Source: a bacterium (GTDB taxonomy: Bacteria > Auribacterota > JABMQX01). From it: a stretch of 64,000 nt of DNA. The stretch spans positions 67,553-131,552 of the forward strand of contig JAUYEE010000330.1 in the NCBI GenBank assembly GCA_030691545.1. Reading direction: 5' to 3'. The number at the start of each line of letters is the position of its first letter. Positions within the stretch are counted from its first letter, which is position 1. The position numbers and the translations under genes are program-made. Below are positions 14,750 to 63,672 of the stretch, piece after piece. Below the pieces are notes generated by a model. It was not told the DNA's origin, ran no database searches, and worked only from the letters and a program-made list of their open reading frames with translations.

Positions 14750-14770
14750 TCTCTGCGTCCTCTGCGGTGA
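14750..14770 (+). repeat. CTCTGCG-N2-CTCTGCGGTGA motif, copy T1
   Basis: ctctgcgtcctctgcggtga. Near-identical copies at 18599-18619 and 36058-36079; all intergenic, same orientation. Confidence 0.5.
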
Positions 14771-14801
14771 ATGCCTTTTTCGTTACAGAGAAGGACTGCA
14801 C

Positions 14802-35612: not shown

Positions 35613-35704
35613 TTATTTCGCCCCTTCAGGGCTGGGGCTGCTGTGGTGTGCGCGGACCCAGGGCGGTGCCCTGGGCTATGATATTGCGCCCTTTCAGGGC
35701 TGCC
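35613..35704 (+). repeat. composite REP-like element Q1 (attgcgcccc-ttcagggct ... gacccagggcgGcgccctgggctatg ... attgcgccc-tttcagggct)
   Basis: Direct repeat of 37699-37790 (Q2). Contains the perfect palindrome cccagggcg/cgccctggg. Confidence 0.65.
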
Positions 35705-35866: not shown

Positions 35867-36057
35867 TGCGAGCTTTAGCCCTTGAATACAGCCTCATCTG
35901 CGCAATTCGCACAGCCCGTGTCATCGGCGGTGATGAGTCCGCAACGAGCCGCCTGTGTCGGTTTCCCGTTGAACATTCCCTCAACCACGAAGACACCAAG
36001 ACACAATTGGCTCCTGCCTTCGTGCTGCTTCGTGTCTTTGTGGTAAGTGCTCCTTTA

Positions 36058-36079
36058 TTCTCTGCGGTCTCTGCGGTGA
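36058..36079 (+). repeat. CTCTGCG-N1-CTCTGCGGTGA motif, copy T3 followed by T7 run
   Basis: ttctctgcggtctctgcggtgagttttttt. Confidence 0.5.
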
Positions 36080-36112
36080 GTTTTTTTCCGGCGCAGAAAG
36101 CTCGCCGGCCCA

Positions 36113-37698: not shown

Positions 37699-37790
37699 TT
37701 ATTGCGCCCCTTCAGGGCTTGGATGATTCGATTCGATTGGGACCCAGGGCGGCGCCCTGGGCTATGGTATTGCGCCCCGTTGGGGCTTGG
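37699..37790 (+). repeat. composite REP-like element Q2
   Basis: Direct repeat of Q1, located ~160 nt upstream of the gatB start. Includes the hairpin gggcttgg..ccaagccc. Confidence 0.65.
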
Positions 37791-50272: not shown

Positions 50273-50394
50273 CTTAGACAAGCAAAACGCTGTCCAAAGG
50301 AAGGGGAACGCCGGATCCTGAACCTTTGTCCGCCCCGTCGCGTCGGGTTGCAGCCGCAGAGGACGCAGAGCACGCCGAGACGTCTGCAATGAGT

Positions 50395-54892: not shown

Positions 54893-55071
54893 GCGGTGAG
54901 GACTAAACCGCGACTGCAAACCACCAAGACACAAAGACACAAATAGTGGAGGCGGCTTCCAGCCGCTTGGCGACGCGGCAAGACGCCGCGTCCACGGCAA
55001 TTCCCGCCAGATAGTTGCGTCTGGCGAGTACAAGCCCTTCCCCCAATCCGAGCAAAGGCCGCGCCCCTGGT

Positions 55072-58844: not shown

Positions 58845-61004
58845 ATGTGGAAGCGATTCGGCAGGAGTTTGTTTGGCTGTGCATGCGGAGGTTTGTTCGT
58901 GAATATGGCGTTCGGAGCTGACGTGGCAAGGACAGGCGATATGTTCCCTGAGAAACCGCCGGAGACGCGGAGGGATGACGTGAGGGAGGTCATGCACGGC
59001 GTCGAGGTCAGCGACCCGTACCGCTGGCTCGAAGACCGAACTTCCCCGGAGACAGAGGCATGGATCAAGGCACAGAATGAATATACAGAAGCCGTCCTTC
59101 ATTCGCTGCCCCGAAGGGAGGAAGTGAAGCAACGGCTCACCGAATTGATGAAGGTTGATTCGGTTGGACTGCCCTGGGTGAGAAATGGGCGGTATTTCCT
59201 CGTGAAAAGAGACCGTGAGCAGGAGCTGTCGGTCATCTCAGTCAGGAATGGGCTTCGAGGAAAAGAAGAAGTGCTGCTTGACCCGCATCCGCTCAGCCCG
59301 GATCACACCACGAGCGTCGGATTACTCGACGTCTCCGACGACGGCACGTTGATGGCCTACAGTGTCCGAGAAGGTGGGCAGGACGAGGTGACCGTCAAGT
59401 TTTTTGACGCGGAGAGGAAGGAGATTTTGCCAGAGAGTCTCCCGAAAGCCCGTTACTTCGATTGTTGCCTGGCGCCCGACAAACGCGGAGCCTACTACTC
59501 GCGGCACGGAGAAGAAGGGACGCGAATTTACTATCACGCGTTCACGAATGCAGGCGGGGACGCCTGCGCTACGATGGGGAAGGGACGCGAGGGCGACCGG
59601 CAAATCTTCGGGGAGGGCTACGGCCCGGACAAGGGAATAAGCGTTGACCTGTCCGACGATGGGCGATACTTGCTCATGACCGTGTGGCACGGTTCCGCGG
59701 CCGAGAAAACGGAGGTCTATTTTCAGGACCTCGCCGAAGGCGGCCCCATCGTTCCAGTGGCGAACGATATTGACGCGCGGTTCGCAGGGGAGATCGGAGG
59801 CGAATCTCTCTTCCTTCACACGAACTGGAAGGCGCCAAAGGGACGTATCCTCCGGATTGACCTGAGAAAGCCCGCGCGCGAGAACTGGCGGGAGATTGTC
59901 CCCGAAACCGATGCGGTCATTGATGGATTCTCCTTAGGAGGCGGGAGGCTTTTCGTCAACTACCTCGAGAATGTGAAGTCACGAGTCCGCGTGTTCGAGG
60001 CAGACGGTCGCCGCGTGGAGGACATTGCGTTTCCGGCGATGGGAAGCATCTCGGGAATCGGAGGGAGGTGGGCGAGCGATGAAGCGTTTTTCATGTTCTC
60101 GTCTTTTCACATTCCGTCCACGATCTACCGATACGAGTTGCCCAGCGGGAGGCAGGAAGTCTGGTGGCGGTTGCAGGTCCCCATGGACAGCGACTCCCTT
60201 GAGATCGAACAGGTCTGGTACAAGTCAAAGGATGGGACGAGGGTGCCGATGTTCCTTGTTCACGGGAAGGGTCTTCACCGAAATGGCTCGAACCCGGCGC
60301 TCCTGACCGGCTACGGGGGCTTCAACGCGACGCTGACGCCGTGGTTCTCGCCCATTGCCGCGATCTGGGCGGAGAGCGGAGGGGTCTTTGCTGTGGCAAA
60401 CTTGCGGGGAGGCGGAGAGTTCGGCGAGGAGTGGCATCGGGCCGGCATGCGAGAGAACAAGCAGAACGTCTTCGACGACTTTCTCGCGGCTGCCGAATGG
60501 CTTATCGCTAATGGCTACACGCGCCCGGAGAAGCTCGCAATCTCCGGCGGTAGCAACGGGGGTCTTCTCGTTGGAGCCGCCCTGGCCCAGCGGCCGGAGT
60601 TCTTTCGCGCGGTTGTGTGCACATATCCCCTCCTCGATATGGTCCGTTACCACAAGTTCCTCCTTGCGCGATTCTGGGTACCTGAGTATGGTTCGTCAGA
60701 GGACTCCGAGCAATTCAAATACCTCCATGCTTACTCTCCCTACCATCGCGTACAGAAAGGTACGAAATACCCCGCAGTTCTTTTCATCACCGGCGACGAA
60801 GACACTCGCGTGGACCCACTTCACGCCAGGAAAATGACGGCTCGTCTCCAGGCTTCGACCGCTTCTAACAGGCCAATCCTCCTTCAGTATGAGACAAAAG
60901 CAGGACATTCCGGCGGACGCCCCCTCAGTAAACAAATCGAAGACCTGACCGACGAATTAGTTTTCCTGTTCTATCAGCTTGGCGTGAACCCTGCCGTCCG
61001 TTAA
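58845..61004 (+). CDS. prolyl oligopeptidase (S9A family), secreted
   Basis: N-terminal beta-propeller; catalytic GGSNGGLLVGA Ser plus Asp/His; signal peptide MWKRFGRSLFGCACGGLFVNMAFGA. Confidence 0.9.
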   Translation: MWKRFGRSLFGCACGGLFVNMAFGADVARTGDMFPEKPPETRRDDVREVMHGVEVSDPYRWLEDRTSPETEAWIKAQNEYTEAVLHSLPRREEVKQRLTELMKVDSVGLPWVRNGRYFLVKRDREQELSVISVRNGLRGKEEVLLDPHPLSPDHTTSVGLLDVSDDGTLMAYSVREGGQDEVTVKFFDAERKEILPESLPKARYFDCCLAPDKRGAYYSRHGEEGTRIYYHAFTNAGGDACATMGKGREGDRQIFGEGYGPDKGISVDLSDDGRYLLMTVWHGSAAEKTEVYFQDLAEGGPIVPVANDIDARFAGEIGGESLFLHTNWKAPKGRILRIDLRKPARENWREIVPETDAVIDGFSLGGGRLFVNYLENVKSRVRVFEADGRRVEDIAFPAMGSISGIGGRWASDEAFFMFSSFHIPSTIYRYELPSGRQEVWWRLQVPMDSDSLEIEQVWYKSKDGTRVPMFLVHGKGLHRNGSNPALLTGYGGFNATLTPWFSPIAAIWAESGGVFAVANLRGGGEFGEEWHRAGMRENKQNVFDDFLAAAEWLIANGYTRPEKLAISGGSNGGLLVGAALAQRPEFFRAVVCTYPLLDMVRYHKFLLARFWVPEYGSSEDSEQFKYLHAYSPYHRVQKGTKYPAVLFITGDEDTRVDPLHARKMTARLQASTASNRPILLQYETKAGHSGGRPLSKQIEDLTDELVFLFYQLGVNPAVR

Positions 61005-61011
61005 GCTTCGC

Positions 61012-61070
61012 GCCCTTCGTGTCCTTCGTGGTGAATATACGCCCGAGTCCGACCACGAAGAGCGCGAAGG
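61012..61070 (-). repeat. periodic repeat copy A (core gcccttcgtgtccttcgtggtgaaTatacgCccg plus ..tccgaccacgaagagcgcgaagg)
   Basis: Copies at 61316-61374 (same orientation) and 61580-61650 (inverted); cores 33-35/35 identical; ~300-bp spacing. Confidence 0.7.
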
Positions 61071-61315
61071 CCACGGAGGTGGATACATGCGGCCGTGCTT
61101 CGTGCTCCTCGCCTGCCCGCCTGCCCGTGGGCGCGCGCGACGGTCGGAGCGGGACCGCGGGACCGTCCGCGCTCCTGGGCGGCGTCTGCCCGAACGGCCA
61201 GGGTTCCCGCGCACAGGCTTCGGACCCCGCGCCTCCCACCGTGCGCGCCCTTGCCCCCATCAGGGCGAACGACTTGCCACGAAGAACACGAAGGGGGATA
61301 TATCTTGTGCTCCAC

Positions 61316-61374
61316 GCCCTTCGTGTCCTTCGTGGTGAACATACGGCCGGATCCAACCACCGAATCCGAAATCG
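61316..61374 (-). repeat. periodic repeat copy B
   Basis: gcccttcgtgtccttcgtggtgaacatacggccgg + atccaaccaccgaatccgaaatcg. Confidence 0.7.
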
Positions 61375-61579
61375 TGGGCGCAGTATCGTACTTTCTGGCA
61401 GCCGTGGGAAGGTAATCGTGCACAAAAATGTCCCGCGGCGCGGACTCGAGCGAATGTGTGCGCACCTCATCTCGTTGCGGACCAGATAGATATGGAAATC
61501 GTGTCCTTTGCAGGACGCCTGGCACAAATCTTGAGTAAACCTCCCGCAATGTTTCCCGGCCACAGGCCGCCCCTGTTCC

Positions 61580-61650
61580 GCTCTTCGCGGTCTTCGTGTT
61601 CTTCGTGGTTGGAGCCCGGCCGTATGTTCACCACGAAGGACACGAAGGGC
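61580..61650 (+). repeat. periodic repeat copy C (inverted relative to A/B)
   Basis: gctcttcgcggtcttcgtgttcttcgtggttggagcccggccgtatgttcaccacgaaggacacgaagggc. Confidence 0.7.
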
Positions 61651-61695
61651 AGGAAGCTTGCCGATAAAACCAGTCAAGTATGGAGGCGTTTTCGG

Positions 61696-63672
61696 ATGCA
61701 AGGCGAAGCCGACGCGGAAGTTCGGTGCAGGGATGAGTTTATGGACGCGCAATCGAGGTGCGGAGCACCAAGGACTACGGAGAAGCGAGGAAAGGAAGAT
61801 GACTTTGTAGCGGCGGAGCGCGGCCTTCTCCACACGGCCGTAGATAACGTACCAGACCATATTTACATCAAGGACGCCGAAGGTCGTTTCGTTCTCGCCA
61901 ACGCTTCGCTCGCGCGCCACATGGGTATCCGGTCACCTCAAGAACTTGTCGGAAGAACGAATTTTGAGTTTTATCCGCCGGACCTCGCGGCCAAATTCGA
62001 TGCCGATGAACGAGGAGTCATCAACTCCGGACTGCCGCGCATTAATCAAGAAGAAGTCGGTGTGGACAGATTTGGCAATAGGATGTGGTTCCTCAGTACG
62101 AAGGTCCCCCTGAGGAATGCCGACGGAAGAATCGTCGGAATCGTCGGCAGCAGCCGGGACATCACGGAACAAAAGAGAATCGAAGAAGCACTTCGAGATT
62201 CGGAGGCCCTGTATCACTCCCTTGTGGAAAGTATCCCGCTAAACGTCTTTCGCAAAGACCTGGATGGAAGATTCACCTTCTGCAATCGCCGGTTCTGCGA
62301 GGTGCTGGGCCGGCCACCTAACGAAATCTTAGGCAAGACCGACTGGGACTTCTTTCCAAAAGAGCTCGCCGAGAAGTACCGAAAGGACGACAGGAAGGTT
62401 ATCGAAACCGGGCAGGTGTTTGAGGACATTGAGGAACATCGCAAGTCCCGCCAAGGGCGGGACGAGACGATCTACGTTCAGGTTTTCAAGACGCCCGTCT
62501 GGAACTCCAGAGGCGAGGTCATCGGAACCCAGGGTCTGTTCTGGGACGTGACGGAGCGAAAGCGGACAGAGGATGCTCTGGCGCAAGAGAAGTATCTCAT
62601 AGACAGCCTCATGGACAATCTCCCCGATAGCATTTACTTCAAGGATAAGGAGAGCCGGTTCACCAAAATCAATAGAGCCCTCGCGAGATGTTTTGGCCTC
62701 GCCGACCCATCGGAAGCGCTTGGGAAGACGGACTTCGACTTCTTCACCGAGGAGCATGCCCGACCAGCTTTCGAGGACGAGCAGGAGGTGATGCGGACCG
62801 GATGCCCCATCGTCGCAAAAGAGGAAAAGGAAACGTGGGCGGATGGGCGGGTGAAATGGGCATCCACGACCAAGATGCCTCTCCGGGACAAGGACGGGAA
62901 AATCATCGGCACGTTTGGCGCCTCGAGGGACATCACTGACCGGAAGGAGGCTCTGGACGCCCTTCAGCAGAAAACCGAAGAGCTGGCACGCTCCAACACG
63001 GAGCTGGAGCAGTTCGCGTACGTCGCCTCGCACGATTTGCAGGAACCGCTTCGGATGGTGGCGAGCTACGCACAGCTCCTTTCAAAGCGATACAAAGGCA
63101 ATCTCGACGCGGACGCGGACGATTTCATCGGTTACATTGTGGATGGGGCGACCCGAATGCAGACCCTCATCAACGACCTGTTGTTGTACTCGCGGGTCGG
63201 CACTCGGGGCAAACCGTTTCGGGAAACCGACTGTGAGGCTGTCCTGAGATGCGTTCTGACGAACCTCCAGGTGGCGATTCATGAGAGCGGAGCCCTCGTG
63301 ACCCACGACCGACTCCCTACCGTGATGGCCGACCGGTCCCAACTCGAGCAGCTTTTCCAGAACCTCATCGGCAACGCGATCAAGTTCCACGGTCCGGAGG
63401 CGCCCCGAGTCCACATATCGGCCGTAGAAACCGCCGCTGAATGGCTCTTCTCGGTGCGAGATAACGGCATCGGCATCGAACCGGAGTACCACGACCGCAT
63501 CTTCGTGATTTTCCAGCGCCTCCACAACCGAACAGAGTACCCCGGAACCGGCATCGGGCTGGCCGTCTGCAAGAAGATTGTGGAACGCCACGGCGGCCGC
63601 ATCTGGCTTGAGTCGCAGCAGGGGAAAGGTTCGACCTTTTACTTCACAATTCCATTTAGAGGAGACCTATAG
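61696..63672 (+). CDS. multi-PAS sensor histidine kinase (HisKA + HATPase_c)
   Basis: Four PAS/PAC units. H-box [16 protein letters not shown]1 (DNGIGI), G2 (GTGIGL). ATG 61696 with GGAGG RBS; the upstream ORF extension runs through the repeat array. Confidence 0.85.

Follow-up and report, generated by a model that had tools for sequence, protein, structure and literature searches.

Heptamer-array hairpins beside a PAS kinase gene as probable gene-less orphans of GxxExxY nuclease cassettes

The closest analogue in behaviour of the repeats considered here is the system of repetitive extragenic palindromic (REP) sequences, their hairpin-forming doublets (REPINs) and the REP-associated tyrosine transposases (RAYTs). 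In that system, as in ours, a small nuclease-type gene lies between inverted copies of a short repeat, gene-less inverted hairpin doublets in intergenic DNA outnumber the gene, target sites are not duplicated, and repeat and gene vary together between lineages. We analysed three repeat units on contig JAUYEE010000330.1. They lie in a spacer of 691 nt that separates a prolyl oligopeptidase gene from a PAS histidine kinase gene; the whole stretch analysed, 64 kb long, is called the window. We consider it likely that these units are gene-less orphans of pan-bacterial arrays that bracket a GxxExxY gene, similar to REPINs or to miniature inverted-repeat transposable elements (MITEs), and not a local regulatory site. 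Membership in the REP/RAYT system fails on the defining gene and on repeat anatomy. The gene is of the PD-(D/E)XK type (PF13366), not a HUH Y1 transposase of the kind found in the insertion sequences (IS) IS200/IS605, and the arm consists of three tandem heptamers, not of a single imperfect palindrome of 20-40 nt with a GTAG head. In addition, the GxxExxY gene is often multi-copy, its family is very large (21,070 clusters at 50% identity, E <= 1e-3), and nearly the same arm design is found over most bacterial phyla.

Other described systems resemble the arrays in part. IS-derived MITEs are also short and non-coding, share identical terminal inverted repeats with a gene-bearing partner, include internally deleted intermediates (here L006, L093 and L121) and reach a high copy number in some genomes. 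However, here there is no target-site duplication, no recognised transposase is encoded by the partner, each inverted repeat is itself a tandem array whose 2-nt spacers vary, and many interiors of the gene-less mini-elements (minis) are without trace of a gene. The IS200/IS605 elements, which move by peel-and-paste single-strand transposition, are likewise very small, encode a protein of ~125-150 amino acids (aa) and make no target-site duplication, and hairpin-forming ends and flexible spacing suggest single-strand recognition. They differ in having a HUH enzyme where ours is PD-(D/E)XK; our ends are true inverted repeats, and there is no TnpB-like partner. Free-standing homing endonuclease genes and PD-(D/E)XK homing enzymes such as I-Ssp6803I are comparable as tiny selfish nuclease genes with no promoter of their own, lying between and co-oriented with housekeeping genes (here radA, fabD-fabG and ade). 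In contrast to these, the recognition-like flanking repeats travel with our gene and also exist alone in large numbers, and the insertion sites are unrelated intergenic spacers and not one conserved target.

Repeat units of the spacer

The units are about 74 nt long (A, 61006-61078; B, 61278-61377; C, 61583-61656) and have a common core that is identical at 32 to 35 of 35 positions. Its 33-nt form (CCTTCGTGTCCTTCGTGGTGAACATACGGCCGG) is exact at 61318-61350 on the plus strand and at 61616-61648 on the minus strand, and has 3 mismatches at 61014-61046 on the plus strand. There is no further copy in the window, and 100 shuffles gave no match. An earlier note on this DNA had described two forward copies and one inverted copy with 33-35 identities; the layout holds, but the first copy reaches only 32 of 35. 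Its CACGAAG heptamers in tandem are borne out by a 9-nt-period pattern (CTTCGTGNNCTTCGTG, up to 2 mismatches) with 12 matches in the window against 0.65 expected, 10 of them inside 61006-61656. The extra degenerate copy that it mentioned is found at 61277-61295, and the peptides that it saw in spurious open reading frames (ORFs) are found too, one 10-residue form twice and another once. The anatomy, given as ~60-bp units at ~300-bp intervals, had to be corrected. The repeats exist, but a repeat finder shows that every unit is a hairpin made from an inverted pair of CTTCGTG (R-type) and CACGAAG (L-type) arrays, which have a 9-nt period and mostly close with GGTGAA. The parts of the units and the genes on both sides are as follows.

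58845-61004, plus strand: prolyl oligopeptidase gene (S9 family), left neighbour, outside the element; TAA stop at 61002-61004
61006-61035, plus strand: unit A, R-type array, CTTCGCG cc CTTCGTG tc CTTCGTG followed by GTGAA; begins 2 nt past the prolyl oligopeptidase stop
61036-61053, plus strand: unit A, loop (tatacgcccgagtccgac)
61054-61078, plus strand: unit A, L-type array, CACGAAG ag CGCGAAG gc CACGGAG
61278-61293, plus strand: unit B, L-type array, CACGAAG aa CACGAAG
61294-61318, plus strand: unit B, interior (ggggatatatcttgtgctccacgcc, 25 nt)
61319-61339, plus strand: unit B, R-type array, CTTCGTG tc CTTCGTG followed by GTGAA
61340-61377, plus strand: B' loop (CATACGGCCGGATCCAA) and degenerate L-type array (ccaccgaatccgaaatcgtgg)
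61583-61609, plus strand: unit C, R-type array, CTTCGCG gt CTTCGTG tt CTTCGTG GT
61610-61626, plus strand: unit C, loop, the reverse complement of the B' loop
61627-61656, plus strand: unit C, TTCAC and L-type array, CACGAAG ga CACGAAG gg CAGGAAG
61696-63672, plus strand: PAS histidine kinase gene, right neighbour, outside the element; followed by a receiver-only response regulator gene

Unit C ends ~40 nt 5' of the kinase start; the ATG at 61696 is backed by an independent gene call and has a Shine-Dalgarno sequence, GGAGG, at 61682-61686. A heptamer test (CTnnGYG/CRCnnAG, at least 2 copies, 8-10 nt period) finds arrays at 61006-61030, 61054-61078, 61278-61293, 61319-61334, 61583-61607 and 61632-61656. 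The end signature of the family is present as GTGAA at 61031-61035 and 61335-61339 and as TTCAC at 61627-61631. The arrays at 61278-61293 and 61319-61339 make unit B a canonical L-to-R mini-element, and its interior has the length typical of gene-less minis (peak ~24 nt). The R-type array of unit B also belongs to a second structure, B' (61319-61339 with 61340-61377), which has the layout and loop of units A and C and a decayed right arm (61357-61377). The predicted RNA folds are strong for A (-37.7 kcal/mol, z -4.9), B (-36.7, z -6.0) and C (-39.9, z -4.4), and B' folds poorly (-17.2, z +0.68).

An L-to-R layout with outward GTGAA ends is seen in unit B and in a second mini at 35986-36042, and units A and C have the rare R-to-L layout. 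Because A and C are R-to-L and also have a loop in common (GAACATACGGCCGGRYCCA; the loop of the 74-nt unit is GAACATACGGCCGG), a 74-nt palindromic array-built unit seems to have been copied in the lineage of the window. The window holds gene-less forms alone: one canonical mini (B) and two or three lineage-specific 74-nt palindromic copies (A, B' and C). We also considered the interior of unit B (atcttgtgctcc) as a remnant of the 3' end of the GxxExxY gene, and rejected this since 74 mini interiors show no enrichment of words from the gene ends (4 vs 1.9 expected).

The earlier note was right that the spacer is not CRISPR-like (clustered regularly interspaced short palindromic repeats). The repeats do not all point the same way, and the ~200-nt sequences between them belong in large part to a backbone conserved in a close relative, L202: ~80 nt of the first inter-unit stretch (61203-61270 plus its start) and nearly all of the second. 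The inter-unit stretches are unrelated to each other, so the ~300-nt spacing does not come from tandem duplication. A 657-bp composite element bounded by a 43-nt inverted repeat that includes AAGCTT was rejected as well, since the sequence between the units is largely L202 backbone and so are the AAGC/GCTT ends. Within the first stretch, 61119-61202 is an 84-nt GC-rich insertion, unique in the window and without L202 counterpart, whose fold is no better than that of shuffles. The word at its end (CCGAACGGCCAGGGT) is found elsewhere in L202, which hints at rearrangement.

The array module and its link to the GxxExxY gene

When the pattern CTTCGTGNNCTTCGTGGTGAA was scanned over contigs from one genome per species, at least 120 stretches matched, from nearly every major bacterial phylum and including isolates (Thioalkalivibrio, Methylobacter). 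The phyla and classes among the matches listed are Acidobacteriota, Planctomycetota, Verrucomicrobiota, Desulfobacterota, Binatia, Chloroflexota, Thermotogae, Gammaproteobacteria and Actinomycetota. In the anchored matches three 9-mers, the third of them upstream, and GTGAA are conserved, the two spacer bases vary, and nothing is conserved past GTGAA; the inverted repeat stops exactly 5 nt (GTGAA) past the last heptamer. The period is variable, 8-10 nt. By a rough ORF test the arrays are mostly intergenic, and they lie beside unrelated genes in many phyla. The module is also present in 81 viral-contig stretches.

With this distribution, it is very unlikely that the units are a local artefact of duplication or replication slippage, unrelated to anything elsewhere. 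The exact 33-nt core is indeed confined to this 700-nt part of the window, and the ~79-nt unit A has no match among plasmids. Yet the module itself recurs in the genome and viral stretches just described, a second CACGAAG mini lies 25 kb away in the window, and the mutually unrelated inter-unit stretches are common to L202 as backbone.

We clustered all ORFs around the array matches to find recurring neighbours. The sole family that recurs 0-11 nt from an array is a 123-aa protein, which is TIGR04256 "GxxExxY" (E 5e-44) and PF13366 PDDEXK_3 (E 2e-42). At three loci (L018, L059 and L084) the gene is bracketed exactly, in the order TTCAC-(CACGAAGNN)x3, ATG...stop, (NNCTTCGTG)x3-GTGAA. The complete element is ~440 bp with a gene of ~370 bp, and a leader of 0-22 nt separates array and gene. 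At L006, L093 and L121 only gene fragments remain between the arrays, as internally deleted remnants. Of 80 GxxExxY genes drawn from metagenomes, 71 are flanked by an array of 3 units or more, 47 of them on both sides. Within 150 nt of the gene ends, arrays reach a density of 5.24 per kb, compared with 0.113 per kb in the rest of those loci. In 38 of the 80, both arrays are strict triples, inverted relative to each other and with mirrored periods, such as (8,9) before the gene and (9,8) after it. These data demonstrate the family identity of the arrays and their link to the gene.

The heptamer varies between elements (CACGAAG, CACAGAG, CACGGAG, CGCAGAG, CGCAAAG, CATGAAG and others) and is largely uniform over the six copies within one. 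Its type follows protein similarity weakly but significantly: the observed difference was reached in none of 2000 permutations, and the nearest protein neighbour has the same heptamer type in 26 of 69 cases against 12.1 expected. The same design is found in isolates, namely Bacteroides finegoldii (radA, GxxExxY, FAD protein), Bernardetia (ade, GxxExxY, manC-like gene), Gemmatirosa and Sphingomonas parapaucimobilis (fabD, GxxExxY, fabG). These isolate cassettes sit inside operons, co-oriented with their neighbours; GxxExxY genes show a slight excess of co-orientation with the flanks (78% and 75% vs 65%). Few plasmids carry the gene (8 records), and the phage collection yielded no match.

Several variant arrangements accompany GxxExxY genes. 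An inside-out layout, with the R-type array upstream, the L-type array downstream and the GTGAA-type ends beside the gene, is seen at L125, L142, L165 and L182; units A and C have this topology too, except that their loop contains no gene. Proteins of ~265-295 aa with two tandem GxxExxY domains (P0241-P0245, P0248 and others) are fused or read-through double cassettes. At L150 (310-1156) there are L-type arrays in one orientation, three of them double with an 87-nt period and a fourth in register upstream of the GxxExxY gene, and more arrays follow downstream of the gene. Three tandem minis with a ~180-nt period follow the gene at L180 (2862-3354). In S. parapaucimobilis (L227, 1471-1899; WP_347090946.1) the RefSeq GxxExxY protein has 142 aa, because its ORF runs through the R-type array (…SSRLRVNQRIGG); arrays can thus create spurious C-terminal extensions. 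On a Planctomycetes contig (L084, 4592-5244) a group II intron (RF02005, 161.7 bits; RF00029) lies ~4 kb from the GxxExxY cassette.

Sequence conservation and modelling place GxxExxY among the PD-(D/E)XK nucleases, as a minimal member of the Cas4/lambda-exonuclease type. Positions D67, E77 and K79 hardly vary across 67 diverse members and form a D...(D/E)xK triad. A structure model from a deep alignment, with a pLDDT (predicted local distance difference test) score of 95, has as its top structural matches the Cas4 protein SSO0001 (4ic1, E 2e-3, template modelling score 0.51), LHK-Exo (3syy) and lambda exonuclease. A shallow-alignment model (pLDDT 48.6) was set aside and not used. PADLOC gave weak Cas4 matches for GxxExxY, and a sequence search found no solved structure of the protein. 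The likeness to the Cas4/RecB/lambda-exonuclease group lies in these structural matches, the weak PADLOC matches and the D...ExK triad. Unlike those enzymes, GxxExxY at 123 aa is the core domain alone, without an Fe-S cluster module and without CRISPR or recombination partners, and the sequence similarity is marginal.

Gene-less forms are abundant. Among 256 CACGAAG-type arrays we counted 92 L-to-R and 7 R-to-L pairs, with interiors that peak near 24 nt, and contigs of the viral collections have 55 L-to-R pairs and 1 R-to-L pair, some with one mini per 2-3 kb. The ~1-Mb plasmids of Gemmatirosa kalamazoonensis each have at least ~40 places that match a CGCAGAG-type mini, and plasmid 1 has 3 gene places. 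One subfamily of minis has a 24-nt palindromic interior, TTCGGA...n...TCCGAA (L016, L022, L024, L033, L064 and L031), conserved across metagenome-assembled genomes (MAGs) labelled Deltaproteobacteria or Binatia. In other MAGs and in Binatia (L049, L054, L102, L027 and L114), a second conserved module (GGTTGCGGCTTTGCCGCGCTAGGT) stands directly 3' of the GTGAA end; lineage-specific repeats have apparently been combined with heptamer arrays there.

These hairpins could also be read as RNA or DNA structures selected by the host, such as stabilisers of mRNA 3' ends, RNase III stems or insulators, comparable to the enterobacterial REP and bacterial interspersed mosaic elements (BIMEs), with mobility secondary. 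The strong predicted folds (-37 to -40 kcal/mol, z -4.4 to -6.0) agree with this, as do the position of unit A 2 nt past a stop codon and of unit C ~40 nt upstream of the kinase start, the isolate cassettes that are co-oriented within operons, and the pairing of the two arrays across the gene that is expected once they are transcribed. Nevertheless, the 2-nt spacers of the two arms are complementary in minis at 0.25, which is chance level, so heptamers are conserved and the helix is not. The three heptamers of an arm are identical to one another, which pairing does not need. Close relatives lack the units in the same intergenic region, minis have no bias in the orientation of their flanks, no U-tract terminators are present at the hairpins, and Rfam gives no match: with Rfam 15 the spacer region yields microRNA hairpin noise alone (15-26 bits vs thresholds of 84-107), and the arrays of 18 related loci match no family. 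We therefore regard a host-selected structure as improbable. Its spacer and Rfam results likewise tell against the small RNA family that the earlier note had offered as one explanation.

Because the spacers of minis are non-complementary and unit spacing ranges from 8 to 10 nt, the conserved thing is a set of identical heptamers and not a continuous helix or helical phase. Such a set fits a protein that recognises the heptamers repeatedly, possibly while the nucleic acid is single-stranded or folded into a hairpin. Selected RNA structure is possible as a side effect; the spacer data and the turnover described below argue against it as the main reason for the arrays.

Turnover, mobility and a proposed mechanism

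The relative L202 has a prolyl oligopeptidase that is 93% identical, followed by the same kinase and receiver genes, and its spacer backbone is ~90-95% identical. In L202 unrelated sequence replaces 61007-61051 (the left arm and loop of A), 61271-61377 (the B region) and 61583-61656 (C, whose counterpart is ~100 nt of unrelated sequence). The right arm of A is present in a diverged form (CCACCAAGagCACCAAGgcCAGGGAG). Since a relative with a 93% identical neighbour gene lacks them, at least B, C and the left half of A probably arrived once the lineages of the window and of L202 had parted. The right arm of A is older than the left, because its diverged form is common to L202. None of these units is present in relatives that are more distant (72-84% identity), and L205 and L206 keep the kinase and lack all units. 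The comparison shows turnover between close relatives, and the spacer looks like a hotspot of it for small repeats. At the sites of B and C, the sequence of L202 (4480-4580 and 4795-4890) is a different one, which includes a GC hairpin (gcaggcccgccttgcgggcctgc) and a decayed array with a lone CTTCGTGG. A contig with an identical kinase, L001 (Logan contig SRR13727536_69454), stops 75 nt 5' of the gene, inside unit C; this fits the expectation that repeats break de Bruijn graph assembly.

The same comparison leaves next to no probability for the response-regulator binding sites that the earlier note had suggested, or for sites of another local transcription factor. In favour are the position of the units, upstream of the operon with the kinase gene, and a superficial likeness of direct heptamer repeats to the boxes of response regulators. 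But the regulator has 148 aa and a receiver domain alone (PF00072), without a DNA-binding domain. B and C are missing from L202, which keeps kinase and regulator, and all units are missing from L205 and L206, which keep the kinase. Furthermore, identical arrays stand beside unrelated genes across phyla, and their period varies from 8 to 10 nt. CsrA-type GGA motifs, parS, DnaA boxes and NarL or PhoB heptamers were also considered and lack support, since the spacer dinucleotides vary and the motif lies beside unrelated genes across phyla.

Turnover of a complete cassette is seen in Sphingomonas. S. parapaucimobilis has a complete cassette, from TTCAC to GTGAA, in its fabD-fabG spacer, and in a sister species, S. 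paeninsulae, this spacer is ~35 nt long and free of arrays. From this comparison, a spacer that is short and without arrays in one species can hold an entire cassette in a related one. Among the explanations in the earlier note, the nest of miniature mobile elements is closest to the evidence, given that the arrays are the termini of GxxExxY cassettes and gene-less minis are abundant.

Another view is that the arrays are an independent family of hairpin repeats and the GxxExxY gene a homing-type parasite of them. Then the nuclease would cut empty hairpins, repair would copy the gene into the loop with the arrays as homology arms, and the units of the window would be empty targets. The absence of recognisable gene remnants in mini interiors speaks for this, and so do the subfamily with its own 24-nt palindromic interior, the lack of target-site duplication, the precise position of the gene between arrays with a 0-22 nt leader, and a fold that resembles end-processing nucleases. 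It does not explain the multiplication of gene-less hairpins to at least ~40 per Mb, and it is at odds with the clear internally deleted gene remnants at L006, L093 and L121 and with the empty Sphingomonas spacer, which is without arrays as well. We think that homing is unlikely, though it deserves some weight, and we favour the reading of the units as gene-less orphans of mobile cassettes.

A number of observations weigh against this preferred reading. No GxxExxY gene or remnant is found in the window (tblastn and hmmsearch of the six-frame 64 kb gave noise alone), so for this genome the supposed mobilising gene is still unseen. The layout of units A and C is the rare R-to-L one (7 vs 92 in genomes, 1 vs 55 in viral contigs). 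No nucleotide-precise pair of filled and empty sites was obtained; compared with L202 the units are replaced and not cleanly inserted. Among 90 L-to-R pairs there is no excess of 2-5-nt direct repeats at boundary offsets of 0-9, that is, no target-site duplication. The proteins P0147 and P0165, on 15-16 contigs each, always have essentially one genomic context (the same locus across samples), and gene-bearing copies give no sign of recent transposition. Words from the gene ends occur 4 times in 74 mini interiors against 1.9 expected, which is not significant; minis may not be simple deletion derivatives. The link between heptamer and protein is weak (0.608 vs 0.581 identity), and shared descent alone could cause it.

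The module consists of about three heptamers (here CTTCGTG/CACGAAG), 8-10 nt apart and closing with GGTGAA, and its complete form has two inverted arrays that exactly bracket the GxxExxY gene. The gene-less forms, with arrays ~20-60 nt apart, are far commoner and litter intergenic DNA in the manner of REPINs or MITEs. We infer that the arrays are mobilised by the nuclease: a GxxExxY protein encoded elsewhere in the genome would recognise the heptamers and promote copying of the arrays. Recognition would probably take place on single-stranded or hairpin DNA, since the spacing is flexible (8-10 nt). When transcribed, hairpins of -37 to -40 kcal/mol would act no more than incidentally on neighbouring mRNAs, as 3'-end or processing stems.

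More tentatively, the arrays and the GxxExxY gene may together form an unrecognised pan-bacterial class of selfish element, with a ~440-bp cassette whose nuclease recognises its own heptamers and spreads itself and the minis without target-site duplication, the repeat specificity co-evolving. This broader proposal is plausible, and we hold it at somewhat less than even confidence. With the same reserve, and by analogy, such a class could be a functional counterpart of REP/RAYT on a different catalytic fold. No description of the gene-array link was found in the searchable literature (subscription literature and curators' notes were outside reach). Literature searches by sequence words and family names returned chance primer matches and catalogue entries alone, and PDDEXK_3 is catalogued merely as "unknown, multiple transfers" (PMC3424549).

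If our reading is right, very common bacterial intergenic hairpins built from CTCTGTG-, CTCCGTG-, CTTCGTG- and CTCTGCG-type 9-mers would have a single origin. It would give a testable function to GxxExxY/PDDEXK_3, a family with almost no literature, and a PD-(D/E)XK counterpart to the HUH-based REP/RAYT and IS200/IS605 systems. With heptamers that are uniform within an element and vary from one element to the next, the arrays make a simple system in which to follow the joint change in specificity of a nuclease and its DNA sites. There is also a practical side. Such hairpins spawn spurious ORFs and break short-read assemblies. Recognising the arrays would help annotation to mask junk ORFs and flag read-through C-termini, as in the 142-aa Sphingomonas case, and would stop the hairpins from being taken for regulatory sites.

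Further arrays in the window

The window has about eight array loci (approximately one per 8 kb) with at least 3 heptamer types, and 20 shuffles gave none. Besides the units of the spacer, the arrays are as follows.

14751-14771, plus strand: solo R-type array between two co-directional ORFs, CTCTGCG tc CTCTGCG gtgaa
18590-18619, plus strand: solo R-type array, CTCCGCG cc CTCTGCG tt CTCTGCG gtgac
35986-36042, plus strand: second CACGAAG-type L-to-R mini, CACGAAG a CACCAAG, 17 nt, CTTCGTG ctg CTTCGTG t CTTTGTG gtaag
36060-36080, plus strand: solo R-type array of another heptamer type, CTCTGCG gt CTCTGCG gtgag
50355-50379, plus strand: intergenic L-type array, CGCAGAG ga CGCAGAG ca CGCCGAG
54922-54944, plus strand: L-type array with an 8-nt period, CACCAAG a CACAAAG a CACAAAT

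Two matches to the Acido-Lenti-1 RNA are present on the plus strand, at 35657-35701 and 37743-37787 (49.4 and 43.3 bits vs a gathering score of 37). Taken with relatives of the prolyl oligopeptidase that are labelled Terriglobia, they point to an acidobacterium. The two matches flank a 512-aa ORF on the minus strand, and the first lies ~280 nt upstream of the mini at 35986-36042.

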